A model generated the notes under the pieces. That model was given only the letters and a program-made list of their open reading frames with translations. It was not told the origin of the DNA and did not search any database. From positions 1 through 64,000 of the forward strand of contig JBGSIA010000057.1 in assembly GCA_041751935.1 (NCBI GenBank): 64,000 nucleotides of DNA, in the 5' to 3' direction. A program made the position numbers and the translations under genes. Origin of the DNA: Pirellulaceae bacterium (lineage in GTDB: Bacteria; Planctomycetota; Planctomycetia; Pirellulales; Pirellulaceae). Positions 9,657 to 58,090 of this stretch are shown in pieces (the first letter of the stretch is position 1; every line of letters begins with the position of its first letter).

Positions 9657-11045
9657 ATGCCTCATCAGGATGAAGTCGTGTTCGTCGACACCGGTGGTGC
9701 GATGCCTCCGATGTGGCCTCGCCGCGTGATGTTTTTTGCTAACTTGTTAGCAATCTTTTTTGGCAACGACGAGCAGACAGCAGCGCTGAGAGCAGTAGTT
9801 GGTGAGATCGACTCTTACAGCGCGAGATTGATTCCCATCTTGAATTTGCTGTTTCGGGGCGACGACAATCTTCTATTTTTGGAGCGTGAGCCAGACCCGA
9901 CGCTTTGCCGTTACTTGCATGATGATTTGGGGCTTTCGCTACCGAGGATGCATGTTTTATCCCACAATGATTATCTCGATCTCGGAAAGCAACTGATTCG
10001 TGATCATGACTTTGATCCGTCGCCGCTACTTGGCCGCGTGATCTCTCACAATCCAGGCTGGGTCGATGGCTATGTTACCGACGACTCTTTGGCACGAATT
10101 GCCACTAGATTGGGATGTCCCACGGTGACCACTACGACAGCAAGCTTCAATGGGAATAATAAGTTACGGTTGCACGAGTTTCTTGTCAGTCAAGGTTTGC
10201 CGACCTTTGATACGTGCTTGGCTGAATCAGGTTCCGATATTTTTCGCTGTGCCGACGAGTTGTCTAATTTGGGTTACCAGTCGGCTGTGATCCGAGCCCA
10301 GGTGGGTGCGTCCGGTATTGGGATGTTGCGATTGCGAGAACTTCGATCGCCTGGCGAGTTTCCCAGTGTTCCGCCATATTTTTTTCACGATGGGCCGTGT
10401 ATGGTGCAAGGTTGGTTAGCACCAAGTAACCAAGACATTTTGGAAATCTACAGTCCCAGCACACAATTGTTTCTGGACGAGAATCATGTTTATGCGTTCG
10501 ATATGACGGAACAAATCCTGAGTTCCGAGAATGTTCATCAAGGCAATGAATCGCCTCCGCCGTACATAAAACAGTTTTCTGGATTGTATGAAGAAACCAT
10601 ACGTCAAGCCGCGATCGTTACACGTTGGCTTCATGGCACCGGATATCGAGGCACGGCGAGTATCGATTGGTTGGTTGTGCGGCGCAATAATCCTGATCGC
10701 TTCGATGTTTACGTTTGTGAAATCAATGCTCGTGTAACTGGGGCAACGTACCCATCCCTGTTGGCTAAGCATTTTCACGATAAAGGAGCGTGGCTACTAA
10801 GAAATTTGAGATTGCGGGTGCCTGTCACGACGACATCGTTGTTGCAAATGTTCGAACGACCGGGACACTTATTCCATCCCGACCGGCGTGCGGGGATTCT
10901 GCCTATGAACTTGAATTTCGGAGTTGACGACTTGGTACACAAGGGCCAGTTTGTCTGTATCGGCGAGTCGACGGCGGATTGCCATCGGTTCCTGAGTCTG
11001 GCCGAACGTGATTTGCCGATTCAATGGGATAGCGACCGTGATTGA
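9657..11045 (+). CDS. ATP-grasp ligase with N-terminal pre-ATP-grasp domain (PGM1-like peptide/amino-acid ligase family)
   Basis: The ATP-grasp core motifs are '[14 protein letters not shown]...[14 protein letters not shown]...[15 protein letters not shown]'. ATG at 9657 has a GAGGGAAG SD-like sequence 9 nt upstream. Confidence 0.6.
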
Positions 11046-11046
11046 G

Positions 11047-12174
11047 ATGAAAGATATGCAAGAACTACAGTCACGACTGGTTTCGTTGACGCGTGATTTA
11101 ATTCTTATTCCCAGTACTGAAAACCGGCCGCGAGAAAGGGATCGCTGTTTCGAATTTTTACGTCATCACCTCGATACTGTCGCAGGATTGAAAGTCGAGT
11201 ATTTTACCTCGCGCGAGCACCGATCGATGGTGGTTCGGCCCGAGAACGATGACGCTCCTGCGGTGCTGCTTTGCGGGCATCTTGACGTGATCGAGCATTC
11301 CGATACCGACTGCTACCACTCGCGAATCGACGAGGGTCGGATCGTTGGTCCAGGTAGCGGCGATATGAAAGGCCAGATCTCGATCATGGTCGAGTTGCTG
11401 CGATCGCTCCACGGGTCGCACCCGGGAATCTCGCTTGGCGCCGCTTTCACAAGCGACGAAGAACGCGGCGGTGCTGACGGAGTCCGTTATTTGCTTGATG
11501 ACGCCGGGTTACGATGTGGGTTGGCAATCGTTCCCGACGGCGGTTCGTTGAATGAGGTCACAATCGAAGAGAAAGGGGTGCTTCATGTGCGTGTTAGGCA
11601 ATCGGGGCGCGAAGCTCATGGGGCGCGACCGTGGCTCGGTGAAAATGCTGTCGAGAAATTGCTGCATAGGTTAACGCGATTGCAGCAACACTTTCTTCAG
11701 TATTGGCCGACCCTTCCGATTCAAGAGCAAGTCAACCATTGGTTTCCCACTTGTTCGATTACGATCTGTGACACAGAGAACAGAACGGTCAATCGAATCC
11801 CTTGTCAAGCGATGGCGATCATGGATGTTCGCTTTCCGCCGCCGCACTCCGTGGAGAGTATGGTTGCAGAGATTTCTGATGTTTTAGGATCTGGGTGCGA
11901 TATCGACGTGTTGATGAGTGCCGAACCAACTCATTTGGATCCTGATCCATTATTCTGCCAGGCGACTGAGCAGATCACCGCGGAACCGGTGAGGATGGTA
12001 CGAGCTTCGGGAGGAAGCGACAGTCGTTTTTTTCGGACGTATGGCATCCCCGTCAATCTCTCGCGTCCATTGGTGGGTAATTTGCATGCCATCGACGAAT
12101 GGATCGACATTCAATCGATGGTGACGTATTACCGAATCTGTGAACGCTACATCATCCAGCGAAGCAGTAGGTGA
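11047..12174 (+). CDS. M20-family metallohydrolase (ArgE/DapE-like deacylase/peptidase)
   Basis: '[11 protein letters not shown]' holds the metal-binding His/Asp, and '[10 protein letters not shown]' matches the M20 catalytic region. ATG sits 1 nt after the ATP-grasp stop. Confidence 0.75.
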
Positions 12175-12180
12175 AGGTTA

Positions 12181-13287
12181 CTACTCCGAGCTGATAGGTA
12201 TCGCCTCCTGTTCGGCGATCTGCAACGACTTAGCATAATTGATTACAAGTTGTTTGATTGCCGTTCGAGCAATACCTTCGGGCATCAAACGACCAAACGC
12301 AAAGTCAACGATTTGTTTGTTATCTTTGTCACTGTACTCCTGCAAGTGTGCAGTTGCGTCGCCAGTAAATCGCTTGTCAAGGTCCAATATCATCGTGGGC
12401 GTGGTCGGCTCGAAAGACAGATCGTCCAGATCTATCCAGCGTCGCAGGGGAGTCTTGGTCGTGCTGAACCAGAGTTTTCGCTCACTTGGTTCGTAAACCA
12501 ATTGCCACTGAGTCAGGCCGGGCTGTGCAACGCGGCCAAGTGTGGAAAGAGCGAAATCGATTCGTTGATCGGGGGAAGAGTTTTTTGAAACTTCGCTGAT
12601 CGATTGGACCGCTTGTATGTATCGTTGTTCGCTTGTGTTGCCCGGTTGTTCACCGTCGAGCGCCGCAGAGGACTCCGGCCAAGTTGAATTCGACAATGCG
12701 CATTGTGCGACTTCGGTACCATGTTGGACGACCGCTCGACCGTCAAGAAACTCGATCACCGCCACACCTCCGCTAGCATCGGTGATGAAGTAGTGCACAC
12801 GCTCGATTGCTGGCAGCATCGGAACGGGTACGACGTTTTCTAAGCTTGCAATGACTTCCTTCACCGTGGTCGCGGTATCCAATTGGTACTGCACCCACTG
12901 CACCACGTTGACTGTCGACATGTCAGCAGTCGGGCTGGGGAACTTGGCGTCGATCAGCTCCAACAAATCGACGGTTAATCCGTGTTCATTCATTCCCGCA
13001 AACGGAATCTCGCGACCGAACTGGACCAAGGAAACACTGCCGTACTTGGAAACCCAAGTTGCTGGGTTGAAGGGCGATAGGGAGGTTTTCTTAATTCCGC
13101 GTTGATTGACAACCAGCGCCCCCTCGCCAAACGGCCAATCGTGATTGCGAGCAACAATCAAATGTCCATCGAACGAATATCGGACAACGGTACAAGCTGC
13201 GCAGGTGGACCTCGATCCGGTCGACGTCAGCACGACCAATGCTGCGGCGAGGATCGAACGAATCGCAAATCGACTTTGAGTTAGCAT
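12181..13287 (-). CDS. Secreted Ntn-hydrolase, choloylglycine hydrolase / linear amide C-N hydrolase family
   Basis: Signal peptide MLTQSRFAIRSILAAALVVLTSTGSRSTCAA is followed by the nucleophile Cys in 'CTVVRYSFDGHLIVARNHDW'. The ATG for MLTQ is on the minus strand at 13287; the GTG at 13482 adds 65 aa. Confidence 0.7.
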   Translation of the reverse strand: MLTQSRFAIRSILAAALVVLTSTGSRSTCAACTVVRYSFDGHLIVARNHDWPFGEGALVVNQRGIKKTSLSPFNPATWVSKYGSVSLVQFGREIPFAGMNEHGLTVDLLELIDAKFPSPTADMSTVNVVQWVQYQLDTATTVKEVIASLENVVPVPMLPAIERVHYFITDASGGVAVIEFLDGRAVVQHGTEVAQCALSNSTWPESSAALDGEQPGNTSEQRYIQAVQSISEVSKNSSPDQRIDFALSTLGRVAQPGLTQWQLVYEPSERKLWFSTTKTPLRRWIDLDDLSFEPTTPTMILDLDKRFTGDATAHLQEYSDKDNKQIVDFAFGRLMPEGIARTAIKQLVINYAKSLQIAEQEAIPISSE

Positions 13288-44804: not shown

Positions 44805-45650
44805 TTGAGCTCACTTCACACAAATACGCCCTACGAGCTGACGCTAGCTGCCGGCCGCGTGGAAAAGAACTACTGGCGTGACCTGTGGCGATACCGTGAA
44901 CTTTTTCAGGTACTTGCATGGCGCGACATCTCGGTGCGATACAAGCAAACGGTCGCTGGTGTTGCCTGGGCTCTTATTCGCCCGTTTGTAACGATCGCCG
45001 TGCTTACTGTAGTTTTCGGAAAACTTGCTCAATTACCCAGCGATGGTAACACCCCGTACCCGCTCATGGTTTTCGCTGGCATGCTTCCGTGGATGTTTTT
45101 ATCATCAACGTTATCAGACGCTTCTAATAGCCTCATCAATAGCGCAAATCTGATCAGCAAAGTCTATTTTCCTCGACTGATTGTCCCTGCCGCAACGATC
45201 TGTGCCGGGCTGATTGATTTAGCGATAAGCTTTGTCGCATTATTGATACTGATGGCGTGGTATCTCTATCTTCCTGGACCTCAAATACTATTGTTTCCGT
45301 TATTCGTGCTGCTTGCAATCGTTTCGACCTTGGGCCCCAGTCTGTGGATTTCTGCAGTCAACGTTCGCTATCGAGATTTTCGGCACCTCGTACCGTTCGC
45401 TATTCAAATTGGCTTTTATGCATCACCAGTTGGATTCAGTAGTAATGTCATTCCCGAACAATACCGATTATGGTATTCCCTGAACCCCATCGTCGGTATA
45501 ATTGACGGGTTTCGCTGGTGCATTCTCGGTAATCAATCGCCACTGTATTTTCCTGGCCTTCTGGTGAGCATCACGTTTAGTATCCTGTTTCTTGCGTTGG
45601 GTATACGAAGGTTTCGCAAAGTCGAGCGCCAATTTGCCGACTTAATTTAG
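44805..45650 (+). CDS. wzm: ABC-2 type polysaccharide export permease (Wzm/KpsM/TagG family)
   Basis: 'WRYRELFQVLAWRDISVRYKQT' is the Wzm N-terminal signature, followed by 6 TM helices. The start is a non-ATG TTG at 44805. Confidence 0.75.
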   Translation: MSSLHTNTPYELTLAAGRVEKNYWRDLWRYRELFQVLAWRDISVRYKQTVAGVAWALIRPFVTIAVLTVVFGKLAQLPSDGNTPYPLMVFAGMLPWMFLSSTLSDASNSLINSANLISKVYFPRLIVPAATICAGLIDLAISFVALLILMAWYLYLPGPQILLFPLFVLLAIVSTLGPSLWISAVNVRYRDFRHLVPFAIQIGFYASPVGFSSNVIPEQYRLWYSLNPIVGIIDGFRWCILGNQSPLYFPGLLVSITFSILFLALGIRRFRKVERQFADLI

Positions 45651-45700
45651 CCTGCTGGTTAGAGACCCAGCGGATAGTTGCCAGTCCATCACTTATCAAC

Positions 45701-47008
45701 ATGATCACCATTAGAGAGCTTGGTAAGTCGTATCTCCTGGGTCACCAGGAGAGCAGTTCGTCCTTATCGATGGATTTACGAGAATCATTCACCGCCGGAA
45801 TTCGGCGAACTGCGAGAAATGCGTGGCATGCGATCTCCGGACGGCAGCTCATTCAGGGCGACACGATTGAAGAGTTTTGGGCGATTAAGGATATCAACCT
45901 CGACGTGAACCAAGGAGAAGTCATTGGTATCATTGGTCGCAATGGAGCGGGAAAAAGTACACTTTTAAAGATACTCAGCCGGATCACTGAGCCAACACTT
46001 GGCTACGTTACTTTGAGGGGCCGCGTTGCGAGTTTGTTGGAAGTTGGGACTGGCTTCCATTCAGAGTTGACCGGGCGTGAAAATGTTTTTCTCAATGGCG
46101 CAATTCTAGGGATGAATCGTGCCGAAATACGCTCCAAATTCGACGAAATTGTTGAGTTCGCCGGCGTTCAACGATTTCTGGACACACCGGTCAAGCGATA
46201 CTCTTCCGGAATGTATGTTCGCCTCGCGTTTGCTGTTGCAGCGCATCTTGAGCCAGAAATACTCGTGGTCGACGAGGTGCTCGCCGTAGGTGATGCTGAT
46301 TTCCAAAAAAAGTGTCTTGGAAAAATGCAAGATGTGGCTGCGGGGGGGCGGACCGTGCTATTTGTCAGCCACAACATGACCACCGTTCGTGCTTTGACTC
46401 AAAAATGCGTTTGGCTAAAATCCGGACGTTTGATGGCTTTTGAACCAACGGCCCAGGCGATTGATCGATACCTTTCCGACGGTCTAGCGGAAGCTACTCG
46501 TGGTGTTTCGTTAGATTACTTCCGGCGAGACCTTCGGCCGGACTCGCCTGTTAGAATTGTAGAAATCGCCGTATCCGGACATGACAAACAAGGCGACAAG
46601 ATTCCGACAATCGAGGACGGAGAGTTTCGCCAGGTCGCGATTTCGATACAGTCGGACATTCCAGTTGAGTCGGCGAAAATATCACTCTTACTTAAACGCG
46701 ACGGGGAAGATACCGTATGCTGCCTTTACTCCAGCGATGGAGGTGATGTGATTCGTTTGTCGCCGGGAATGAATTTAGTGAAATGCACCCTGCCTAGGCT
46801 GCACCTACCCTCGGGGCGTTTTACCATTGGAATGGGCGTTAGCCCTCGCACGGATTCACCCATCATTGATGTAATCCAAGACTACCCACTTTTCGAAAGC
46901 CGTCTCCGCGGAGCAGAAAACGGCACACTCGAGTATGCCACTCGGCCTTGGGGTGCTGTTTTTCTTCCCGATGCGCGATGGGAGGTTGTCGCCCATGACT
47001 CGCGTTAA
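45701..47008 (+). CDS. wzt: Polysaccharide ABC transporter ATP-binding protein with C-terminal glycan-binding domain (Wzt/TagH family)
   Basis: Walker A 'GRNGAGKST', the ABC signature 'YSSGMYVRLAFAVA', Walker B 'ILVVDE', and a ~180-aa C-terminal beta domain as in Wzt. Confidence 0.8.
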   Translation: MITIRELGKSYLLGHQESSSSLSMDLRESFTAGIRRTARNAWHAISGRQLIQGDTIEEFWAIKDINLDVNQGEVIGIIGRNGAGKSTLLKILSRITEPTLGYVTLRGRVASLLEVGTGFHSELTGRENVFLNGAILGMNRAEIRSKFDEIVEFAGVQRFLDTPVKRYSSGMYVRLAFAVAAHLEPEILVVDEVLAVGDADFQKKCLGKMQDVAAGGRTVLFVSHNMTTVRALTQKCVWLKSGRLMAFEPTAQAIDRYLSDGLAEATRGVSLDYFRRDLRPDSPVRIVEIAVSGHDKQGDKIPTIEDGEFRQVAISIQSDIPVESAKISLLLKRDGEDTVCCLYSSDGGDVIRLSPGMNLVKCTLPRLHLPSGRFTIGMGVSPRTDSPIIDVIQDYPLFESRLRGAENGTLEYATRPWGAVFLPDARWEVVAHDSR

Positions 47009-48140
47009 CTCATCTTATCCCATACCTTTCAACAAACCTTTTGTCGCTGGCAAAGAGCTGTATTACATTGCTCAAGCGGTCACCATGGGGAATCTTGGTG
47101 GTGATGCTCATTTTACTCAAATGTGCTGCCGGACTTTACAAAACCGGTTTGGGATCTCCAAGGTACTCCTTACGCCTTCCTGTACCGCGGCTTTGGAGTT
47201 GGCGTCGATGTTGTGTCAGTTCGATCAAGGCGATGAAGTGATCATGCCATCGTACACATTTGTGTCGACGGCCTCGGCATTCGTCCGTGAGGGAGCTAAA
47301 CCTGTATTCGTCGATATATGCCCGGACACGCTCAATATCGACCCCAAGCAAATCGAGCAAGCCATTACACCGCGAACGAAAGCTGTTTGCGTCGTTCACT
47401 ATGCCGGCGTTGCGTGTGAAATGGATGTCATCTGCGATATAACGCGGCGACATAAGCTGATTCTCATTGAAGATGCCGCTCAAGCTGTCAATTCCTTCTA
47501 CAAAGACAAAGCGTTGGGATCAATCGGCGATCTGGGGTGCTACAGCTTTCACGAAACAAAAAATTACATATGTGGTGAAGGGGGCGCTCTTTGCATCAAT
47601 AATGAAAAGTTCGTCGAGCGAGCCGAGATACTTCGCGACAAAGGCACGAATCGACAGAAGTTTATGCGTGGGCTCGTGGATAAATACACTTGGGTTGATG
47701 TCGGGTCCTCGTATGTCCCCAGCGAACTCTGTGCTGCGTTTCTTTTTGGCCAACTTGAAGAAATGGATCGAATCTCCTCGCGGCGCCATGAAATTTATGA
47801 TCGTTACTTTAGCACACTGCAGCCGCTCCTCAACCATGGGATTCAGCTTCCAGTAATTCCGCCGTCCTGCCGCAGTAATTTTCATCTTTACTTTTTGATT
47901 CTCCGCTCCGCGTTGCAACGCGACGAAGTTCTAGCGAAATTGAGAGAGCAAGGTATTGGCGCCGTATTTCATTATGTACCATTGCATACCTCTCCTCAAG
48001 GGAAGCAGTATTCTGTAAATGTCAGACTTCCCATTACGGAGGATCTCAGTGCTCGACTGATTCGCTTGCCCTTCTACTATGACCTCACCGAAAACGAGCA
48101 ACAACGTGTGATATCCTTGTTAATTGAACTTCTTTCCTAA
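46995..48140 (+). CDS. wecE: dTDP-4-amino-4,6-dideoxy-D-galactose (Fuc4N) transaminase, DegT/DnrJ/EryC1 family
   Basis: Near-collinear with E. coli WecE: 'PFNKPFVAGKELYYIAQAV', 'LLTPSCTAALELA', 'MPSYTFVSTA', 'HYAGVACEMD', 'FHETKNY', 'REKGTNR', 'DKYTWVD', 'FHYVPLH' and 'LIRLPFYYDL'. A GGAGG sequence lies 10 nt upstream. Confidence 0.85.
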   Translation: MTRVNSSYPIPFNKPFVAGKELYYIAQAVTMGNLGGDAHFTQMCCRTLQNRFGISKVLLTPSCTAALELASMLCQFDQGDEVIMPSYTFVSTASAFVREGAKPVFVDICPDTLNIDPKQIEQAITPRTKAVCVVHYAGVACEMDVICDITRRHKLILIEDAAQAVNSFYKDKALGSIGDLGCYSFHETKNYICGEGGALCINNEKFVERAEILRDKGTNRQKFMRGLVDKYTWVDVGSSYVPSELCAAFLFGQLEEMDRISSRRHEIYDRYFSTLQPLLNHGIQLPVIPPSCRSNFHLYFLILRSALQRDEVLAKLREQGIGAVFHYVPLHTSPQGKQYSVNVRLPITEDLSARLIRLPFYYDLTENEQQRVISLLIELLS

Positions 48141-48147
48141 TAAATAA

Positions 48148-48912
48148 ATGAATCTTGGCAGCAATCTTCCGAAGGTTAAAGAACTACAATGGGACAGTGA
48201 GTTTTTCGGCTTTCGTGTCGCCTGTCTTAGGAATTGCAACGATACGCGTTCGGCAAGGTCGCTTATTTACCAGGCTTTACAATCCGGCATAAAGCTAGTT
48301 TACCTATCCGTTGATATTGACAATGCAAAAAATCTCGCGTCGTTCAAAACGGCATTCGCGTCAAGGCATGTTGTTGACCATCTGAAATATCGCTACCGGA
48401 TCCCTTCGGCAGCTCAGTCGCCCATAGGCGACTTGCCCAGCCGCTGGGCTGTCCACCGCTATGCTCAGGGAAATGCCGACGAATCGCTTGTAAAATTGGC
48501 ATTGCAAGCTGGATCACGCTCGCGATTTAACGTAGACGCCAAATTTGGGAAAGTAGTTTTCGAAAAACTTTACGAAACCTGGATTCATCGCAGTTGTCGT
48601 CGTGAGATTGCTGACACCGTCGAAGTAATCGAAGATGAAAGCGGCGAAGCTGTTGGCCTGGTCACTCTGCGTGTAGCAGGGAATTGTTGTAGTATTGGAT
48701 TAATCGCAGTATCGCCAGAATACCATGGTCGCGGTCTTGGAAAACTCCTGATTGACCGAGTGATCTGCTATGCGACTCAGCACGGGTGTAAAGAAGTATC
48801 CGTCGTGACGCAAGCGGAAAATAGTCCGGCAATTCACCTGTACGAGTCATGCGGGTTTGTATGCTGCGAGAAGAACGCCTGGTTTCATTTTTGGAATGAA
48901 GTGGAACGATGA
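48148..48912 (+). CDS. wecD: GNAT acetyltransferase, WecD/RffC-like dTDP-fucosamine N-acetyltransferase
   Basis: The C-terminal GNAT core is 'GLIAVSPEYHGRGLGKLLID...VTQAENSPAIHLYESCGF'. Its position between wecE and wecF homologs mirrors the ECA operon. Confidence 0.6.
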   Translation: MNLGSNLPKVKELQWDSEFFGFRVACLRNCNDTRSARSLIYQALQSGIKLVYLSVDIDNAKNLASFKTAFASRHVVDHLKYRYRIPSAAQSPIGDLPSRWAVHRYAQGNADESLVKLALQAGSRSRFNVDAKFGKVVFEKLYETWIHRSCRREIADTVEVIEDESGEAVGLVTLRVAGNCCSIGLIAVSPEYHGRGLGKLLIDRVICYATQHGCKEVSVVTQAENSPAIHLYESCGFVCCEKNAWFHFWNEVER

Positions 48913-50087
48913 ACTCATTCATTCATTTAATACCCGATGACCCCAAGTTTGTAGCATACATAGTCGAATACTTTAGTGCAGTAGTTCCGCATCGCCATCG
49001 GTACGTGTTAATGGGCAGTCGCAGTGACCACTATCACGCTTATCCTCATTTGCTTTACCATAACGAGGAAGTAAACAAAGTTTTCGAATTGACAAAGGAC
49101 GCTAGGGGTGTAATAACGCATGGAATGTACGGGAATCAGGTCAGCGTTATCAACCAATTGTCAGCGACCGTACCTGTTGCCTGGATCCCATTTGGAGCCG
49201 AGTACCACGACAATTTACCCGAGTTCAAATGTCGCTTGCTGTTCAAAAAAACAGAAAGTCTTAAGTACGCCGAAGTTGAACTGCGATCCAGTAACAGATT
49301 GCGAAGATTGTTGAGGTCCTGCAGAGGCTGTCTCCAGCGTATGCAGTCGAGTCGAGTAAGGAATCGTCAATACTCGGCAATTCGTCAAGCGATGCAGCGA
49401 GCCAATGTGATCGGATTGTTTCTTGAAGAAGAATTCGAGCTACTTCGTGCAAAACTCAACGTCAGCGCGAAGTGGAGCTGGTTTACTTATTACAACATTT
49501 TGGATACTGTCGGTTCCGAGCTGATTGACCAGAACGCATCTGGCAATGATGTTCTAGTCGGAAACTCAAGCGACCCATCAAACAACCACGTCGAGGCAAT
49601 AGATTTACTGGTACAGCATCGTAATCATTTTGATCGTGCGATTGTTCCCCTAAGCTATGGTGACCCAAACTACCGAGAAAGGATACTTGACTATGGATTG
49701 AAACAATTGAACGATCAATTCGCTCCACTTACTCAGTTTGTCGAGCGGACGGAATACAACCGTTTGCTTTTGTCATGCAAGGTAGCAATCATGAATCATC
49801 GACGGCAACAAGCGGTCGGCAATGTGATTACTCTGCTTTGGCTAGGGGCGAAGGTCTATATGACTAACGAGAGCACTGTGTTTCAGTATTTCAAGCGTCA
49901 AGGCCTGTGCGTGTTTTCAATTGAAGACGATCTCCTTGGTTCGACGGATCCAGCTTCTGCTTTTGCAGGACTCAGTATCCAGCAAGTAGGATCAAACCGT
50001 TCGCGTCTGGAACAACTGTTTTCGCGATCAGCCGTCATTTCTGGAGCAGTCAATCTTATCGACGATCTGGAACGAGTGAATTCTTGA
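48909..50087 (+). CDS. wecF: WecF/RffT-like 4-alpha-L-fucosyl(Fuc4NAc) transferase (GT56)
   Basis: 'IHLIPDDPKF' compares with E. coli 'IHVLGSDIPHHN', and 'VLVGNSSDPSNNHVEAIDLL' with '[20 protein letters not shown]'. ATG overlaps the wecD stop as ATGA. Confidence 0.65.
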   Translation: MNSFIHLIPDDPKFVAYIVEYFSAVVPHRHRYVLMGSRSDHYHAYPHLLYHNEEVNKVFELTKDARGVITHGMYGNQVSVINQLSATVPVAWIPFGAEYHDNLPEFKCRLLFKKTESLKYAEVELRSSNRLRRLLRSCRGCLQRMQSSRVRNRQYSAIRQAMQRANVIGLFLEEEFELLRAKLNVSAKWSWFTYYNILDTVGSELIDQNASGNDVLVGNSSDPSNNHVEAIDLLVQHRNHFDRAIVPLSYGDPNYRERILDYGLKQLNDQFAPLTQFVERTEYNRLLLSCKVAIMNHRRQQAVGNVITLLWLGAKVYMTNESTVFQYFKRQGLCVFSIEDDLLGSTDPASAFAGLSIQQVGSNRSRLEQLFSRSAVISGAVNLIDDLERVNS

Positions 50088-50122: not shown

Positions 50123-51145
50123 TTATGCAGCGGTCCGGGTAAATTTTGGTCGAAAATACCTAGAGAGCAATCGTAGCACTGCACCAAACGTTCTCGTTGA
50201 CAAACGTGCTCCAGGGTCCTCAAGCATCTTGCGAAAAATTTTTGTCGATGAGCGAAAAGGGGACTGATCGAAATCGTCAAGTAATTCAACTAAGTATTGG
50301 TGCCACGGTTGTCGACGGCGGCCCAAGCGAGAAGCGTAAGCGAGGTGTGGAGGGAGCATTTTCTCCAGCTTCGTTCGAATTAGATCGCTCTCAAGCTTGA
50401 ATCGATTGTCAGTATTTGAGTCTTTGGCCGATTCAACGACTGTTTTAGATTGGTCATGAATCCGAAAAATCGCCCCCACGGTATCCGAGTAAAAGACGCA
50501 GGGACTCGCTGCGAGATAGCGGATCAGGAGGTCCCAGTCGAATCCGTAATTTAAGTTTCTGTCGATTCCGCCACAGGCCAGCAATAGATTGGTGCGATAC
50601 CATATGCCCGGCTGGCTGAAAGAGTAGCGGTCGTCCCGCAATATGCTTTCGGCGTTGAGATTGTAGTTTTTCATCAAGTATGGCCGATGTGAGTTGCCTT
50701 CGACGGATACGGGAAAAGTGTAAAGGTCGACGTCCTGCTTCATGTTCTGGCCCAATTCGCGAAGCACACCGGGCCGTAAATAATCGTCCGAGTTGATCCA
50801 GTTAAATACATCACCATTTGCCAATTTGATTCCTTTGCAGATCGCATCGGACTGGCCCTCATCGCTTTCGCGAATTACGCAAGAAATATACTCGGAATAC
50901 CTGTCGAGAATCTCATGACTGTTATCAGTGCTACCTCCATCGACGACTATGTATTGAAGATTGGGGTAGTCTTGTAACAAGATCGAACGAATCGTCGCTT
51001 CGAGGTAGTTACCTTGATTGAAGCTTGGGGTAACGATGGTCACTGACGGGAGGTTTGCCTCTCGCAATTCATGGACGTTTCGTTGCTCGGATTCCCAGGG
51101 CCAACCGCAAAGTTTCTTGGGGGGGGCGGGGAGTGGTAGTTGCAT
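50123..51145 (-). CDS. Glycosyltransferase family 2
   Basis: 'VTIVTPSFNQGNYLEATIRSILLQDYPNLQYIVVDGGSTD' is the GT2 DxD region. The start is the internal ATG at 51145 (MQLPLP); the longer 51304 start would overlap the divergent gene. Confidence 0.7.
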   Translation of the reverse strand: MQLPLPAPPKKLCGWPWESEQRNVHELREANLPSVTIVTPSFNQGNYLEATIRSILLQDYPNLQYIVVDGGSTDNSHEILDRYSEYISCVIRESDEGQSDAICKGIKLANGDVFNWINSDDYLRPGVLRELGQNMKQDVDLYTFPVSVEGNSHRPYLMKNYNLNAESILRDDRYSFSQPGIWYRTNLLLACGGIDRNLNYGFDWDLLIRYLAASPCVFYSDTVGAIFRIHDQSKTVVESAKDSNTDNRFKLESDLIRTKLEKMLPPHLAYASRLGRRRQPWHQYLVELLDDFDQSPFRSSTKIFRKMLEDPGARLSTRTFGAVLRLLSRYFRPKFTRTAA

Positions 51146-51258
51146 CACTGTTTCCTCTTCAGCAAAGTATCGACGAGATCTAAGTGTACTGATATTCTTT
51201 GCTAGTGTGGCTAGATTTCGAGAGTCATTTATCTTTCCCGTTCTGCTGAGAAATATTG

Positions 51259-51969
51259 ATGAAATCCATCGCCCATTCGGATGTGGAAGAGTTGAAGGCC
51301 GCAAAAAAGCGACTTTATCCTTCGCTGCTTAACGACCGTTACTATCTGTTGACACAATACCGAAAGTGTTTGCAAGTGCTAATCGACAGTCAGTCGTTAG
51401 TCGAGTCGGCGACCATTGTCGACTTCGGGTGCGGCGAGATGCCCTATCGCAGCCTTTTTCCGGATTCCTGTCATTATATTGGTGCCGATATTGCAAGTAA
51501 CTCCAATGCCAATACTCTGGTGAGCGAAAAAGGCACCGTTGAATTGCCTGATGCGTCGGCGGATCTAGTGCTTTCACTTCAAGTGTTGGAGCATGTAGCC
51601 GACACGAAAAGCTATCTCGCAGAGTGCCACCGATTGCTAAAGCCTCAGGGGGCTCTAATTCTTACGACTCATGGCCATTGGATGTATCATCCGCACCCTA
51701 CGGATTTCTGGCGTTGGACTGCGGATGGATTGGATTTAACACTTTCTAATAGCGGATTTGACGTCGTTCACATTTCTGGGGTGCTTAGCCTCGCCGCGAC
51801 AGGTGCTAATTTATTCCAGGATGGCTGGATGCCGCGGCTGCCTCGAGTAATGAAGATGCCGTTTGGGCTTTTCATGCAATCGGTGATCGCATTGAGCGAC
51901 TGGCTTGCACCAAGCGCTGCAGGGCCAACTGACTGCGCGACACTACTGACACTATCCAAGCGCGTTTGA
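51259..51969 (+). CDS. Class I SAM-dependent methyltransferase
   Basis: 'VDFGCGEMPY' is motif I, with 'LVLSLQVLEHV' and 'LLKPQGALIL' downstream. Confidence 0.65.
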   Translation: MKSIAHSDVEELKAAKKRLYPSLLNDRYYLLTQYRKCLQVLIDSQSLVESATIVDFGCGEMPYRSLFPDSCHYIGADIASNSNANTLVSEKGTVELPDASADLVLSLQVLEHVADTKSYLAECHRLLKPQGALILTTHGHWMYHPHPTDFWRWTADGLDLTLSNSGFDVVHISGVLSLAATGANLFQDGWMPRLPRVMKMPFGLFMQSVIALSDWLAPSAAGPTDCATLLTLSKRV

Positions 51970-52024: not shown

Positions 52025-53191
52025 TCAGGCATCAAGGCCACTGGGCCAGCAACGACGAAAGCTGGCTATCTGGTCAAATACCTTCAAGAGTGATTCCACG
52101 TATTGATTCATGTTGAGATTTTCGACTCGGGCCACTCCTCGATCGATATATTTTTGACGTTCTGTCGGACTGCTGAGTAGTCGCTGAATCGCTATCGCCA
52201 TCTCTTGTTCGTTTGTCGGAGCGACAAGGATAGCGGCCTCACCCAGTTGTTCGCTCGCGCCTGGGACTGCCGAAGCAATAACTGGGCAAGCCAGACGCAT
52301 CGCTTCGATGGGAGGCAGATTGTCGGGGCCGAATAAACTTGCAAAAACTAGAGAGACTGCATTGCTGTATAGCCAGCGCATCTCAGCATCTGTAACGAAC
52401 CCTGGATACAATACATCCACATCCAATGCTTCAGCGGTAGAGCGAATGTAATTTAGGGTGCAGTATCGATCGAGGCTTGATGAGCCAGGAAAGACAGCTT
52501 GGATATAAGTTCCAAAGTCGTCCTTCAGCCGACGCATTGCTCGCAGAATCGTAATGTGATTCTTGTGCGGCCAGAACTGTGCCGGGTAGATAACGAAAGG
52601 TTGGCCAGGCGCCCATGAAGGACGCACGGCTTCGGTCGTTATGAGGGCCTCTGGAACCGCGAATGGAATAACAGCTATACGTTCGTTTGCCACTCCGTAG
52701 AATCGCTCGACTTCCGCTTTTCCCTGTTCGGTCCCCGTGATCACTGCAGCGGCCCTGCGTAACGTGTTGCAGTAATGGTTTTCACGATTCTGCCACGTCC
52801 ATCCAGTTGTTGAGACTTCTGGAAAAAAGGGTTGCATGCGATGCTGAAGATCCCAGCATGTAACGACGAACGGGAGCTCATCACAGATCGTGCTTGGATG
52901 CGGCGAAAAGAGTAAGTCGATTTCATGTTGTCCAAGAGAATCCTTGAACACCTTTGACTGCGAAGTCGTCAAGTTTAGCCGTTCAAGGAGTAAACGTGAT
53001 CGAGTTACGGGGGCAAGGGGAGGGAGCTGTATGTGTTTTAAGTCAACCGTCTTGTCAGCCGAGTGATTGACTAGGAAAAAATCATGGCTCGACCCCGAAT
53101 TGGCAGCTAATGCGGTGGTGACTTCCGACTCAAACCGAGCGCTACCGCCAAGTTTTGACGAATAGCCAGCAAGGTACACTCCGATTTTCAT
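52025..53191 (-). CDS. Glycosyltransferase family 4 (GT-B, retaining)
   Basis: The C-terminal 'FASLFGPDNLPPIEAMRLACPVIAS' is the GT4 EX7E region. ATG overlaps the upstream stop as ATGA. Confidence 0.75.
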   Translation of the reverse strand: MKIGVYLAGYSSKLGGSARFESEVTTALAANSGSSHDFFLVNHSADKTVDLKHIQLPPLAPVTRSRLLLERLNLTTSQSKVFKDSLGQHEIDLLFSPHPSTICDELPFVVTCWDLQHRMQPFFPEVSTTGWTWQNRENHYCNTLRRAAAVITGTEQGKAEVERFYGVANERIAVIPFAVPEALITTEAVRPSWAPGQPFVIYPAQFWPHKNHITILRAMRRLKDDFGTYIQAVFPGSSSLDRYCTLNYIRSTAEALDVDVLYPGFVTDAEMRWLYSNAVSLVFASLFGPDNLPPIEAMRLACPVIASAVPGASEQLGEAAILVAPTNEQEMAIAIQRLLSSPTERQKYIDRGVARVENLNMNQYVESLLKVFDQIASFRRCWPSGLDA

Positions 53192-54306
53192 GCCGAGTCC
53201 TCTAACGCCGCGATAAGCACTCTGCAAACTTGGCGCACGTCATCATCCTTTAAGCCCAAGCCACTTGGCACGTATAATCCCCTTCGCGCGAGTCGTTCAG
53301 CAACCGGATAGTGTTCGCCATCAAATAGCTTCATGGATTTGAAGATAGGTTGTTCGTGCATCGGCCAAAAGAATGGTCGTGTTCCAATTTGTGCTTCGCC
53401 AAGACGTGCTGCGAGTTCTTTAGCCGAAAGAGTTACTGTTTCATCAAGAACAAGTCCAAATACCCAATAGATGTTTTCTGCATAGCGAGAAGATGCTTGG
53501 GGCAAGGTAATACCCGGCGCCTCGGAGAGCAGATTGTGATACAAGCGACCTATTTCTCGCTTTCGCTGGACATGCGGTTCCAGACGCTCCAATTGCGCCA
53601 ATCCAAGTGCGGCTTGCATATTGGTCATGCGATAGTTCCATCCTAGTTCGTCATGGATAAAACGCTGTTTGGGTTGGAAGCAGAGGTTGCGTAGTCGGCG
53701 GCAGTGTTCAGCAATTTCGTCGTCGTCTGTAACAACCATACCACCTTCACCACAGGTGATGTGTTTGTTCGGGTAAAAGCTAAACGTGCTAATAAGTCCA
53801 AAATTTCCGCAGGGCCGATCTCGATAAGTTTGACCATGCATTTCCGCAGCATCTTCAATTACTTTCAGTCCATAACGTGCCGCAATATCAAGTATTCGGT
53901 CCATATCTGCGGGCAGGCCATAGATATGCACAACTAAAATAGCTTTAGTCTTGCTGGAAATTTTTGCTTCGATTTGATCTACATCCATGTTCCATGTCAG
54001 CGGATCGCTATCGACGAGCTTTGGGACACCGCCTGCGCGAACGACGGATGCGGCTGGCGAGATGATCGTAAACGTAGGCATGATTACTTCGTCGCCGGGG
54101 CCAATTCCAGCCGCTGCGACTGCAATGTCGAGTGCTCCCGAGCCATTTGCACATGATATGCCATGGCGTCGACCGACATGGCCTGCGAAGGCCTCTTCGA
54201 ATTTACTGACGAATGGCCCCTCGCTACTAATCCAGCCGGAATCGATACATTCGATGAGATACTTTTTCTCGTTGCCGTCCAATAGAGGTGTGTTGACCGG
54301 AATCAT
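53188..54306 (-). CDS. DegT/DnrJ/EryC1/StrS-family PLP sugar aminotransferase (nucleotide-sugar 3- or 4-aminotransferase)
   Basis: 'GDEVIMPTFTIISPA', 'HIYGLPADMD' and 'FSFYPNKHITCGEGG' hold the PLP-Lys region. Confidence 0.8.
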   Translation of the reverse strand: MIPVNTPLLDGNEKKYLIECIDSGWISSEGPFVSKFEEAFAGHVGRRHGISCANGSGALDIAVAAAGIGPGDEVIMPTFTIISPAASVVRAGGVPKLVDSDPLTWNMDVDQIEAKISSKTKAILVVHIYGLPADMDRILDIAARYGLKVIEDAAEMHGQTYRDRPCGNFGLISTFSFYPNKHITCGEGGMVVTDDDEIAEHCRRLRNLCFQPKQRFIHDELGWNYRMTNMQAALGLAQLERLEPHVQRKREIGRLYHNLLSEAPGITLPQASSRYAENIYWVFGLVLDETVTLSAKELAARLGEAQIGTRPFFWPMHEQPIFKSMKLFDGEHYPVAERLARRGLYVPSGLGLKDDDVRQVCRVLIAALEDSA

Positions 54307-54316
54307 GGAAAAACTG

Positions 54317-55105
54317 TTAGTTGATTTTTTTCGCTACGAAAGTAATTCCCCAGGTATTGCAACTGGGCGCGGCGCCGCTAAGCCACTCTTCCTGGTGGAC
54401 GATTTTAAGTCCGTTCCGCTCAGCGATCCATTCCAACTCGGGTGTGAAATAGTATCGCATGAGGTGATGTTCAGAAAAACGAGAGACACGTCCAGTTTCG
54501 CGATCGGTGACAATAATCTCATAGTGCACATCAACACAATTGCGGTTAACGTTCTGCACAGGTTCCGCAATTCGCAGAACGTCAATTGCGTCAGACGACA
54601 TTCGCTTCACCCGAACGGCTGGTCTTTCGCTGAGTACCGCTGGCCCATACCAAACATCAAACAAAAATATGCCTGATGGTTTCAGGTGCAACGCGGCTGT
54701 CTCAAACATCGCCGCAACATCTTCATTTGTTGTTTGATAGCTGACGACGTGAAACAGAGCGAGCACAGCGTCATAGCGTGTCTCGCTGCGAAATGCTTTT
54801 GCGTCGCCGAGAAGTACATGCAAAGATCCGGTGGCATTTGCTTGTGAGGCGGGTTCGACACTCAACGATCGTATGATGGCTCGATCATACATCTCTGGAC
54901 TTCGTTCCACGCCGGTGACACGCATGCCCGAGCGAGCTAGCAATTCACCGTGCTTTCCCGTACCACAGCCCAATTCAAGGAGTTCAATGGGGTGATCACC
55001 GAATGAATTCAGCAGCGATAGAATATAAGCGGATTCCGCTTCATAGTTCTTGTCTTGGTAAAGTACGTCGTAGTAGCTGCTGTACAGTCCGAATGGATCA
55101 CTCAC
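54317..55105 (-). CDS. Sugar N,N-dimethyltransferase-like SAM methyltransferase (TylM1/DesVI family)
   Basis: 'YYDVLYQDKNYEAESAYILSLL...LLELGCGTGKHGELLA' matches the TylM1 N-terminus and motif I. The C-terminal region through 'MRYYFTPELEWIAERNGL' keeps the family architecture. The start is GTG at 55105 or TTG at 55138. Confidence 0.6.
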   Translation of the reverse strand: MSDPFGLYSSYYDVLYQDKNYEAESAYILSLLNSFGDHPIELLELGCGTGKHGELLARSGMRVTGVERSPEMYDRAIIRSLSVEPASQANATGSLHVLLGDAKAFRSETRYDAVLALFHVVSYQTTNEDVAAMFETAALHLKPSGIFLFDVWYGPAVLSERPAVRVKRMSSDAIDVLRIAEPVQNVNRNCVDVHYEIIVTDRETGRVSRFSEHHLMRYYFTPELEWIAERNGLKIVHQEEWLSGAAPSCNTWGITFVAKKIN

Positions 55106-55532
55106 GAATGCGAATCCTTTCTGTGGACACTGGTTCAAAGCGTGTCTTGTCTTGGTCGCCGAAGTAGGGACCTTGCTTGACCTCGATAATGACGGACGGT
55201 TCCAGCATTTCTAAGCCGTGGCCTCCAGCGGCGAGCAAGATTACGTCACCGGATGTGAGGATGCTGCTTTCGAGATAATGTTTCCCGTCGGTATAAAAGT
55301 CGACTCGCACTTTGCCTGACTTGATGAGCAGTACTTCTTGCGTCCAGACGACAGCACGTTCTACAGGATTGTGGACATGCGGTTCGATCACATATCCCGT
55401 AGGACGGTTCATGTAGCCAAGTTGTTGAGAAAAAACACTTGGCGTAAAGAATTCAATGCCATCAGAGTGGAAACTTGAGCGAATGATGATTGCTATTGTT
55501 TGGTCGATGTGCTTAATGTGTTCAACGCTCAT
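55098..55532 (-). CDS. Cupin-fold dTDP-4-keto-6-deoxyhexose 3,4-ketoisomerase (FdtA/QdtA/WxcM-like)
   Basis: 144 aa with a HxH metal/catalytic pair in 'EPHVHNPVE' and a cupin beta-core. Its place beside the aminotransferase and methyltransferase supports the call. Confidence 0.5.
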   Translation of the reverse strand: MSVEHIKHIDQTIAIIIRSSFHSDGIEFFTPSVFSQQLGYMNRPTGYVIEPHVHNPVERAVVWTQEVLLIKSGKVRVDFYTDGKHYLESSILTSGDVILLAAGGHGLEMLEPSVIIEVKQGPYFGDQDKTRFEPVSTERIRIRE

Positions 55533-55552
55533 GCCGCAGCCGAATTGTGTTG

Positions 55553-56473
55553 CTAGGTGAATGATGTGGGATTACGTCGCCGCAAGACTGGCCCGGCGAT
55601 TGCCTTGACGCTTTCCGTTAGCCACCAAACGAGCATTTTCGGTTCTATAGTGACGAGCTGCATCAAAAACGCGAATCGATCTTTTTTGAAGGACTGGATT
55701 TGGCTAAGCAATTCCATCACACGATGTTTCCAGTTTACCTTTTGATGGTGTTGTCGCCAGAGTGCCCGATGCTTGCGATAGATGTAGAGACGGCCTTGGA
55801 CATTGCGACGATCGCTTTTGGACATCTGTTCGGCGTGCTGATAATACCGAACTAGCAGTTCGGGCACACTCGAATAGTGGCATTTTTCTGCTAGCCGGAG
55901 ATGCAAATCCCATTCTTGAAAGCTGGGGCAACTTTCGTCCAGGCCACCTACTTCCCGCAAAATTTGCGTGGCAATTAGGGCGGCGTTCATGTCGACGTAG
56001 GTCTGTCCATTGAGGAGCTGTGGGACGATCATCCCCACCGGTGTCCAGGTGAAAGATCCCACGGTAGTTTCTTTGCCCTCCGATTCTTCGACAAGTCGTG
56101 AATGGCAGGTGATGATTGTTGCTGGAGGTTTGTTTATCGCCTGAGAGATCAGTGTTTCGATCATTCGTGGCTCAAGGCAATCGTCTGAATCGAGGAAAAC
56201 AACGTACGTTCCAGTGGCGTGATCAAGCCCAGTGTTGCGGGCTCCGGGCGCCCCTTTGGTGCGCGCATTTACCAACACAATCATCCTCGCATCGGATCGC
56301 ATCAATGCCGTGGCAATCTCGAGTGTTGAGTCTGCGGAGCCATCATCGACAATTAGGAGTTCTAGCTTCGTATGAGTCTGGGCGAGAACGCTATTTATGG
56401 AACGTGCAATTGTCGCTTCCCGATTAAAAGCTGGGACAATGACGGAAACGAGAATGTCCTTAGCGGCGATCAC
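55553..56473 (-). CDS. Glycosyltransferase family 2
   Basis: 'VSVIVPAFNREATIARSINSVLAQTHTKLELLIVDDGSADST...FLDSDD'. GTG start. Confidence 0.75.
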   Translation of the reverse strand: MIAAKDILVSVIVPAFNREATIARSINSVLAQTHTKLELLIVDDGSADSTLEIATALMRSDARMIVLVNARTKGAPGARNTGLDHATGTYVVFLDSDDCLEPRMIETLISQAINKPPATIITCHSRLVEESEGKETTVGSFTWTPVGMIVPQLLNGQTYVDMNAALIATQILREVGGLDESCPSFQEWDLHLRLAEKCHYSSVPELLVRYYQHAEQMSKSDRRNVQGRLYIYRKHRALWRQHHQKVNWKHRVMELLSQIQSFKKDRFAFLMQLVTIEPKMLVWWLTESVKAIAGPVLRRRNPTSFT

Positions 56474-56588: not shown

Positions 56589-57614
56589 CTAGGCCAGGGC
56601 TGGGATCTTGGCGTTTTTGACTGTCGTGACAATTGCGCTGGCTACCATGTAGGGGTCAGCGTTACTTGCCGGACGGCGATCTTCAAGCCAACCTTTCCAG
56701 CCTCTCTGGACCGTGGCGATGGGAATACGGATCGATGCACCTCGATCGGAAACACCGTAGCTGAACTTGTCGATCGACTGCGTTTCGTGCAGGCCAGTCA
56801 AACGCTGGTTGTTGTCCGCACCGTAGACGTCGATGTGTTCCTTGATCCGCGGCTGGAAAGCATTGCAAACAGCATCGTAAACTTCTTTGCTGCCGCAAGT
56901 TCGCAACAGCGTGTTACTGAAGTTCGCATGCATGCCGCTGCCGTTCCAGTCGCCTTTGACCGGTTTGCAGTGCCAATTGATCGACAGACCGTGCTCTTCG
57001 GCGATTCGCTCGAGCAAGTAGCGAGCAACCCAAACTTCATCGCCAGCACGGGCAGCACCCTTAGCGAAAATCTGGAATTCCCACTGGCCGATTAACACTT
57101 CAGCGTTGATGCCTTCGACATTCAAGCCAGCTTCGAGGCACATTTCCAAGTGCTGTTCGACGATCTCTCGGCCGACTGCCTTGCCAGCTCCAACGCTGCA
57201 GTAATACGGTCCCTGGGGCCCAGGTTCACCGTCAGCAGGAAATCCGATTGGCTTTTGCGTTTCAGGATTCCAGATCGTGTATTCCTGCTCAAAGCCAAAC
57301 CAAAAATCGTCATCCGAATCATGGATGGTGGCGCGACCATTGGTCCGGTGTGGTGAGCCGTCCGGATTCATGACTTCGCACATCACCAGAAATCCCGTGC
57401 CACTGCGGCCGGGATCAGGACAGCAAAAAACGGGCTTGAGCAAACAGTCGCTCGAACCACCGGGAGCCTGCTGAGTCGACGATCCATCAAAACACCATTC
57501 TGGGGCGTCTTCAACGTTGCCGCTGAAATCCTCGATGATCTTGGTCTTGCTACGCAGGCTCTGGGTGGGCTGGTAGCCATCGAGCCAAATATATTCCAAC
57601 TTGCATTTGGTCAT
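56589..57614 (-). CDS. glnII: Glutamine synthetase type II (eukaryote-like GSII)
   Basis: 341 aa from the MTKCKLEYIWLDG start. 'GPYYCSVGAG', 'WVARYLLERIAEEHG' and 'DRGASIRIP' are GSII hallmarks. Confidence 0.85.
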   Translation of the reverse strand: MTKCKLEYIWLDGYQPTQSLRSKTKIIEDFSGNVEDAPEWCFDGSSTQQAPGGSSDCLLKPVFCCPDPGRSGTGFLVMCEVMNPDGSPHRTNGRATIHDSDDDFWFGFEQEYTIWNPETQKPIGFPADGEPGPQGPYYCSVGAGKAVGREIVEQHLEMCLEAGLNVEGINAEVLIGQWEFQIFAKGAARAGDEVWVARYLLERIAEEHGLSINWHCKPVKGDWNGSGMHANFSNTLLRTCGSKEVYDAVCNAFQPRIKEHIDVYGADNNQRLTGLHETQSIDKFSYGVSDRGASIRIPIATVQRGWKGWLEDRRPASNADPYMVASAIVTTVKNAKIPALA

Positions 57615-58090
57615 GAAATCGATTCCCCCTAGTGAATCATCAATGGAGTTGACCGTCGGGCGGTGCGGACAGCCGTTTGTACACACAAACACCCTGTACC
57701 CGCCTTGTTAAATAACACTACCTACCTACCACCACCGAAATCGCACGCTGCCGCCCATGTTTTTAGCTTGTCGCTAGACACGTGCGAGTTTGAGCAATTC
57801 TTGAACCAGCCCTAGGATAACCGATTTTCACGTTTGTGGAAGTGTGAATTCAACCTTACGTTTCCTCAGGAAGTATCGCGTTGCACAGCCGATATTGGCT
57901 CGGGTGCAAATCGCGACGAATCAAAATCGGCAATGGTTCCCATCTGGTTTTTAACGCTGAATAGTGGGCGAACCCCACTCGTTATGGAACAACCTGAAAG
58001 TCATCGACCATCCTGCTCCACGAGCCCGACCCTTTGCTTTGAATAAGGACGCGGACAAATTCGGAGAAATTATTGTAGAGCAACCAAACG

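Follow-up and report, generated by a model that had tools for sequence, protein, structure and literature searches.

A conserved cupin, methyltransferase, and aminotransferase gene cassette as a candidate pathway to an N-methylated amino sugar of bacterial surface glycans

Organization and spread of the cassette

We analyzed a 64-kb stretch of DNA from a Pirellulaceae bacterium (assembly GCA_041751935.1, contig JBGSIA010000057.1, positions 1 to 64,000), referred to here as the window; all positions are window positions. On its minus strand, three intact neighboring open reading frames (ORFs) code for a small cupin, an S-adenosylmethionine (SAM)-dependent methyltransferase (MT), and a pyridoxal phosphate (PLP)-dependent sugar aminotransferase (AT) (Table 1). 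An earlier reading of the same DNA (the original prediction) had proposed from these genes that an envelope glycan carries an N-methylated amino sugar. That proposal stands as a prediction, and the three genes and the 10-nt spacing between MT and AT had been located correctly. The 2-nt gap given between the cupin and MT genes is in fact an overlap: the only in-frame MT start codons are GTG at 55105 (8-nt overlap with the cupin gene, GTGAGTGA) and TTG at 55138 (41-nt overlap). The GTG start agrees with the overlapping cupin-MT arrangement in two other genome loci (L004 and L001). The end of a glycosyltransferase (GT) gene of family GT2 lies 20 nt ahead of the cupin gene, and the AT stop codon overlaps the start codon of a GT4 gene (ATGA, 53191-53188), by which GT4 is translationally coupled to AT. 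On the basis of these two junctions, we regard GT2-cupin-MT-AT-GT4 as a five-gene operon (56473..52025).

Table 1. Genes of the cassette operon and of the surrounding glycan locus, in window positions. GDP, guanosine diphosphate; dTDP, thymidine diphosphate; Fuc4NAc, 4-acetamido-4,6-dideoxygalactose; GNAT, GCN5-related N-acetyltransferase.
Feature	Position	Strand	Remarks
GT2 glycosyltransferase	55553..56473	-	First operon gene; PF00535, 124 bits
Cupin, 144 aa	55098..55532	-	Uncharacterized WbuC-related family; conserved H52, H54, E66, H105
DesVI/TylM1-like SAM-dependent N-methyltransferase (MT; predicted)	54317..55105	-	262 aa from GTG 55105; ORF reaches TTG 55138
PLP-dependent sugar aminotransferase (AT), GDP-perosamine-synthase-like, 372 aa	53188..54306	-	PF01041, 391 bits
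GT4 glycosyltransferase	52025..53191	-	PF00534 and PF13692; candidate transferase for the modified sugar
Wzm	44805-45650	+	Part of the Wzm/Wzt ABC exporter; exporter pair matches PF01061 and PF00005
Wzt	45701-47008	+	Part of the Wzm/Wzt ABC exporter; Wzt-like NCBIfam matches
WecE, WecD-like GNAT, WecF-like GT56	46935..50087	+	Separate dTDP-Fuc4NAc-type module, outside the cassette
Second GT2 gene	51304..50123	-	Context gene of the locus
Additional class I SAM methyltransferase	51256..51969	+	Context gene of the locus

We then surveyed a genome set with one genome per species, in which 374 loci encode a relative of the cupin. The best 80 were analyzed, and 69 of these had enough downstream flank to be judged. 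In 63 of the 69, the cupin, AT, and MT genes shared a strand and fell inside 4.5 kb, 35 loci having the order cupin-MT-AT and 28 the order cupin-AT-MT. The hosts belong to Planctomycetota, Bacteroidota, Gamma- and Betaproteobacteria, Cyanobacteria, Campylobacterota, Verrucomicrobiota, and others. A scan seeded with MT found both cupin and AT in 40 of 44 judgeable metagenome loci. Relatives of the cupin number in the thousands; the 120 listed are 68 to 85% identical, and the best matches (81 to 85%) come from Novipirellula species, in line with the Planctomycete origin of the DNA. Within the trio, the cupin is the most conserved protein (62 to 81% identity, compared to 38 to 55% for MT), and the cassette ATs form a group of their own, 57 to 74% identical among themselves and always paired with the cupin. 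The cupin gene is always the leading gene of the cassette, with translational coupling to AT or MT.

In L001, L002, L012, L031, and others, the gene immediately before the cupin encodes a GT2, and a homologue of the window GT4 directly follows the trio in about 40 of the 80 genome loci. Of the 80 loci, 35 encode a Wzt homologue no more than 10 kb from the cupin. The cupin-AT-MT trio is also found on Bradyrhizobium and Azospirillum plasmids and on a large replicon of Neorhizobium galegae HAMBI 1141, the 1.64-Mb pHAMBI1141a (NZ_CP094524.1, NZ_CP039644.1, and NZ_HG938356.1; loci L166, L167, and L168). The cassette-bearing Bradyrhizobium plasmids are conjugative, and the Bradyrhizobium/Azospirillum set is described as conjugative or mobilizable. 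In Bradyrhizobium and Neorhizobium, the GT4 homologue comes after the trio; in Azospirillum, it lies upstream of the cupin. The trio with its trailing GT4 is a horizontally spread cassette, conjugative plasmids included. In the window, the G+C content across the glycan locus (about 44.8 to 56.5 kb) is 0.47 to 0.50, compared to 0.53 to 0.56 in the flanks, which is consistent with horizontal acquisition.

Some loci depart from this arrangement. L114 was considered as a cupin-less MT locus, and hence as a natural control, and was rejected when a divergent cupin was found there (hhalign, 99.7%). This cupin (36% identical) overlaps an AT that is 44% identical, so that cupin and AT co-diverge. The loci of Rhodopirellula sallentina (L007) and Aporhodopirellula rubra (L008), at 10001-12240, carry cupin and MT with no Per-like AT within 10 kb. 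The place of AT behind cupin-MT is taken in L007 by a sulfotransferase-like NKWYS-domain gene. Genes of the sulfotransferase type are likewise found beside the cassette in L035 and on the plasmids of Bradyrhizobium and Azospirillum. An acyltransferase that might indicate a C3 or a C4 amine was sought next to the MT-less variants L044 and L067, where the scanned neighbors were glycosyltransferases, a short-chain dehydrogenase/reductase (SDR), or proteins without a Pfam match and none was an acyltransferase.

Methyltransferase, aminotransferase, and nucleotide carrier

Compared with the PDB, MT found its best solved relatives in the sugar N,N-dimethyltransferases DesVI (3bxo, E = 1.4e-18) and TylM1 (3pfg, 2e-12) and in CalS10 (4e-10), which N-methylates an amino sugar. 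The DesVI match runs over nearly the full length (MT residues 21-255 of 273 against DesVI 10-230 of 239), with 29% identity; identity to TylM1 is 25%. When 69 cassette methyltransferases were aligned with DesVI and TylM1, the SAM motif GCGTGKH proved to be conserved. MT F129 corresponds to TylM1 F118, Y134 to DesVI Y113 and TylM1 H123, and F16 to TylM1 Y14; we take Tyr14, Phe118, and His123 of TylM1 to be active-site residues. Further residues in common with DesVI and TylM1 are K30, Y32, E35, D112, H151, W163, R189, and H225. The TylM1/DesVI-like identity given in the original prediction holds on this alignment, as that of a distant subfamily, and it seems quite likely that MT N-methylates the sugar amine. 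The identity of just 25 to 29% and the generic class I methyltransferase domains found by Pfam would also fit an enzyme that acts elsewhere, by O- or C-methylation or on another acceptor, leaving the amino sugar unmethylated or acylated by an enzyme encoded elsewhere. We regard this as very improbable, as the best named solved relatives of MT are amine N-methyltransferases, and so is its best NCBIfam match, the daptide amine dimethyltransferase (far under the model cutoff). Moreover, MT co-occurs with AT in about 91% of loci, and the trio includes no N-acyltransferase.

AT, a DegT-family aminotransferase as originally predicted, has as its best solved relative the GDP-perosamine synthase Per of Caulobacter (3bn1, E = 6e-93, 315 bits); against QdtB, a C3 enzyme of dTDP-sugars, it scores 195 bits. 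It is 44% identical to Per over 364 aa, and Lys181 aligns with the PLP lysine of Per in an FSFxxNK motif. GDP-mannose 4,6-dehydratase (Gmd) is encoded within 10 kb of the cassette in 15 of the 80 loci; a true RmlB (dTDP-glucose dehydratase) is encoded within that distance in 2 of the 80, both of which also have Gmd. The Gmd gene immediately precedes the cupin gene in L004 and L014; the Gmd found 48 nt ahead of the cupin in Allorhodopirellula is a bona fide one (TIGR01472, 537 bits versus a 415-bit cutoff). Together with the cupin fusions to Fcl-like SDRs described below, the Per-like AT and the Gmd genes near some cassettes suggest GDP-4-keto-6-deoxy-D-mannose as the entry compound. Judged from these comparisons, the sugar is probably GDP-linked and not dTDP-linked.

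The original prediction had proposed a dTDP-3-(dimethylamino)-3,6-dideoxyhexose of the mycaminose or ravidosamine type, made from dTDP-4-keto-6-deoxyglucose via an FdtA/QdtA-type isomerase. The gene order and sizes do mimic tyl1a-tylB-tylM1, and the closest solved relatives of MT act on dTDP-3-amino sugars. Furthermore, the WecE module of the glycan locus needs dTDP-4-keto-6-deoxyglucose, so that this precursor should be made in the organism and may conceivably serve the cassette as well. On the other side are the AT scores, the enrichment of Gmd instead of RmlA or RmlB near the cassette, and the failure of the cupin in every FdtA family-profile test (see below). Taken together, these results make the proposed pathway improbable, and its dTDP carrier is probably wrong. 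The window holds neither Gmd nor RmlB, another point against a GDP carrier beside the WecE module; since no dehydratase is encoded there, the carrier is assigned for this genome by homology.

The cassette shares its logic with Tyl1a-TylB-TylM1 (dTDP-mycaminose) and DesV-DesVI (dTDP-desosamine) of macrolide producers, which likewise combine a small cupin, a DegT aminotransferase, and a SAM N,N-dimethyltransferase, and the homology of MT is genuine and extends almost from end to end. It differs in the carrier, which is probably GDP here, in its cupin, which comes from another family and has a metal-type signature, and in an AT that is Per-like instead of TylB/DesV-like. The setting differs as well: where the macrolide genes belong to antibiotic clusters, the cassette serves a surface glycan exported by an ABC transporter and is found in many Gram-negative phyla. 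A second comparison is with Per/RfbE and the GDP-mycosamine synthases (AmphDII/NysDII), to which the cassette is tied by the similarity of AT to Per and, in some relatives, by a nearby Gmd. Canonical Per pathways require no cupin and N-acylate the amine, whereas the cassette has a cupin and a predicted N-methylation. The C3 (mycosamine) and C4 (perosamine) GDP-sugar aminotransferases are not separable by sequence, and no GDP-4-keto-6-deoxymannose 3,4-ketoisomerase has been found (PMC8944477). The amine of the cassette sugar may thus lie on C3 or on C4.

The cupin and the proposed pathway

The cupin had originally been assigned to the FdtA/QdtA type. It matches no Pfam family, and neither PF05523 (FdtA) nor PF00908 (RmlC) hit it at E ≤ 0.01; these two models also had zero matches among 65 cupin relatives (down to 37% identity), even at E ≤ 1. 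Neither phmmer nor a profile built from 65 family sequences gave a significant match for the cupin among all chains of the PDB, and the family profile recovered no FdtA, QdtA, or RmlC chain. With hhalign, the probabilities were 1.3% against FdtA (2PA7) and 2.3% against RmlC. Neither the FdtA/QdtA assignment nor a grouping with RmlC is borne out, and the cupin likewise has no significant sequence or profile similarity to the wider set of PF05523 3,4-ketoisomerases (FdtA/QdtA/FdtD/WlaRA-RB). Weak Pfam matches among the 65 relatives were to Cupin_2, Cupin_1, and MannoseP_isomer (PF01050, three members). The sole named family that the cupin approaches is the WbuC cupin fold metalloprotein (NCBIfam TIGR04366), which was matched by 63 of the 65 relatives at E ≤ 0.01 (best E = 1.2e-10); the window protein itself scores 29 bits, below the curated 42-bit cutoff. 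By these profile comparisons, the cupin is best described as WbuC-related and as a member of neither the FdtA/QdtA nor the RmlC family. Public labels are 'hypothetical protein' (RefSeq, two annotated plasmid loci) and 'mannose-6-phosphate isomerase-like protein' (JGI, several members). A literature search for WbuC returned only mentions as an annotated neighbor of resistance genes and no functional study; we take WbuC to be a protein of 6-deoxy-amino-sugar O-antigen clusters.

Across the family, residues H52, H54, E66, G73, and P122 are invariant, and R59, H105, K119, Q120, and K129 are at least 90% conserved. In a nonsignificant alignment, H52, H54, E66, and H105 fall on the four metal ligands of the Ni-quercetinase QueD, presumably H69, H71, E76, and H115. 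The spacing of this putative site (HxH-x11-E) is noncanonical, while the HxH...E...H pattern is typical of metal-binding cupins and may mark a metal site. The cupin was compared with archaeal phosphoglucose isomerase (PGI), type II phosphomannose isomerase (PMI), and QueD; all similarities to these proteins are below significance, and the context here, unlike that of the metal cupin isomerases and dioxygenases, is a nucleotide-sugar pathway. Several metal cupins, among them PMI, archaeal PGI, and KduI, catalyze ketol isomerizations. A structural model of the cupin listed QueD as the top Foldseek match and included P. furiosus PGI. With respect to FdtA, hhalign placed the invariant H52-x-H54 on H49 and H51, the catalytic His pair of FdtA on its barrel strand, which are studied residues according to PDB mutant entries; this alignment, too, was not significant. 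The cupin is a small single-domain protein with a predicted cupin barrel (144 aa, compared to 139 aa for FdtA/Tyl1a) and, as with FdtA, is encoded near a DegT aminotransferase (AT within 4.5 kb downstream); its gene stands immediately ahead of AT or MT, a position like that of FdtA/Tyl1a. It differs in a 7-residue insertion behind HxH and in Glu66 and His105, which would complete a metal-type site that FdtA presumably does not have.

Two kinds of unusual cupin context were recorded. Five predicted proteins of a representative library (P0125, P0127, P0135, P0171, and P0137) carry the cupin together with a second part, which is an Fcl-like SDR, a class I methyltransferase, or GT2; these may be real fusions or gene-calling artifacts. 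In a Paludibacter jiangxiensis metagenome-assembled genome (L070, 2751-3590), a 135-aa cupin matches the Pfam FdtA model (33.5 bits, cutoff 23) and, weakly, RmlC. Its gene follows an SDR gene and comes directly before a family cupin-MT-AT set, so that both kinds of cupin are present in one locus.

According to our model, Gmd, encoded outside the 64-kb window, would convert GDP-mannose to GDP-4-keto-6-deoxy-D-mannose, which the cupin, with its metal-type His/His/Glu/His set, would rearrange. The likeliest guess for this step is a 3,4-ketol isomerization similar to the action of FdtA and Tyl1a. The Per-like AT would then aminate the keto carbon, and MT would transfer methyl groups from SAM to the amine; whether one or two are added is a guess. 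Finally, GT4 would move the sugar onto a lipid-linked glycan for export by Wzm and Wzt. From the strong conservation of the cupin, its first place in the cassette, and its coupling to AT or MT, we infer that it acts ahead of AT and prepares the keto sugar for transamination. We thus read the cassette, with a probability of roughly 0.4, as making and installing an N-methylated amino-6-deoxyhexose from a GDP-linked precursor, with the cupin as the 3,4-ketol isomerase. For the chemistry of the cupin itself, our guess slightly favors a ketoisomerase, giving a C3 amine, over an epimerase, giving a C4 amine. The FdtA-like size and gene position, the HxH that the nonsignificant alignment puts at the FdtA position, and a metal-type site like that of cupin ketol isomerases are our reasons for this preference.

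Several observations weigh against isomerization. The closest characterized relatives and best NCBIfam matches of AT are all C4 aminotransferases (Per, LegC, PseC, WecE, and DesI). The structural model of the cupin is only moderate (pLDDT, a per-residue confidence score, 74), fold searches with it fail to separate RmlC, FdtA-type, and metal cupins, and the epimerases RmlC, WbcA, and MlghB are among its best fold matches. WbuC relatives presumably belong to pathways with epimerizations and not 3,4-isomerization. The SDR found fused to the cupin is of the Fcl-like, 4-reductase type, and the two cupins side by side in L070 would be redundant if both were ketoisomerases. These same points (the C4 relatives of AT, the epimerase fold matches, the SDR fusions in some relatives, the WbuC relationship, and the FdtA/RmlC-like cupin of L070) would suit a GDP-linked, N-methylated sugar with its amine on C4. 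In that case, the cupin would be a C3, C5, or C3,5 epimerase and the product an N-methylated or N,N-dimethylated perosamine epimer. We consider this somewhat less likely than the isomerase reading. The RmlC model matched 0 of the 65 members, in line with the low hhalign value, and no conserved Tyr that could complete the His/Tyr pair of RmlC was present among the invariant cupin residues. In addition, known nucleotide-sugar epimerase cupins have no metal site, whereas a four-residue metal-type signature is conserved here.

The cupin might also not act on a nucleotide sugar at all, being instead a PMI-like supply enzyme, a regulator, or a WbuC-like accessory protein, while AT and MT by themselves would yield GDP-N,N-dimethylperosamine. 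Per and a methyltransferase are chemically sufficient for that product, and the JGI names, the weak PF01050 matches in three members, and the lack of a WbuC function in the literature search agree with such a role. An accessory protein would, however, hardly be expected to be the most conserved of the trio, to be translationally coupled to AT or MT, and to diverge together with AT; the cupin also tracks AT and MT and not ManB/ManC or Gmd. We therefore hold this explanation to be unlikely.

If the preferred reading, with the cupin as a 3,4-ketol isomerase, is carried to the family as a whole, the cupins would be the missing GDP-4-keto-6-deoxy-D-mannose 3,4-ketoisomerase, metal dependent and distinct from FdtA. 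The cassette product would be a GDP-3-(methyl- or dimethylamino)-3,6-dideoxyhexose, an N-methylated sugar of the mycosamine type that would bring a cationic residue into the surface glycans of hundreds of species from many bacterial phyla. This extension is speculative. The function of the cupin would in either case be of interest, as it would be either this missing enzyme, an open point in mycosamine biosynthesis, or a new nucleotide-sugar activity, and it would probably also help to explain what the WbuC proteins encoded in O-antigen clusters do. Outside antibiotic pathways based on dTDP sugars, N,N-dimethylamino sugars are, to our knowledge, hardly known; the locus suggests a GDP-based counterpart tied to ABC-exported surface glycans. 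Such a cassette would give the cell surface a positively charged tertiary or secondary amine, with a bearing on surface charge, interactions with phages and antimicrobial peptides, and antigenicity. Neither perosamine nor mycosamine in an N-methyl or dimethyl form turned up in our literature search, nor did a cupin acting on GDP-4-keto-6-deoxymannose or such a pathway. Work on Rhizobium lipopolysaccharide from the 1980s, by Hollingsworth, Hrabak, and Dazzo (1986), reportedly described 3,6-dideoxy-3-(methylamino)hexoses; were the cassette present in those strains, only the genes would be new and the chemistry would be known already.

The surrounding glycan locus

The two GT2 genes, the GT4 gene, and the additional SAM methyltransferase around the trio had been noted correctly in the original prediction, which did not mention the Wzm/Wzt exporter or the WecE/WecD/WecF-like module. 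A comparison of GT4 with the PDB gave generic GT4 matches only. The Wzm, Wzt, WecE, WecD-like, and WecF-like genes form a plus-strand operon (44805-50087) that has the appearance of an enterobacterial common antigen-type module for dTDP-Fuc4NAc (or viosamine) in a Planctomycete. WecE scores 564 bits against NF008687 (cutoff 375), and its true start is probably near 47020; the WecD and WecF models were matched by the module genes only beneath their cutoffs. With this dTDP-sugar module and the cassette in one glycan locus, two different amino-6-deoxyhexoses are probably used there.

Residues 266-435 of Wzt form a C-terminal extension of about 170 aa that has no Pfam match and looks locus specific. 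We had considered that the cassette sugar might be a chain-terminating cap read by a conserved carbohydrate-binding domain of Wzt. This idea was dropped, since, of the 40 other cassette loci with a Wzt, 39 lack a counterpart of residues 266-435. Adjoining the glycan operon is a type II (GlnII, eukaryote-like) glutamine synthetase gene at 56589-57692 on the minus strand, which scores 421 bits against NF041605, under the 500-bit cutoff.

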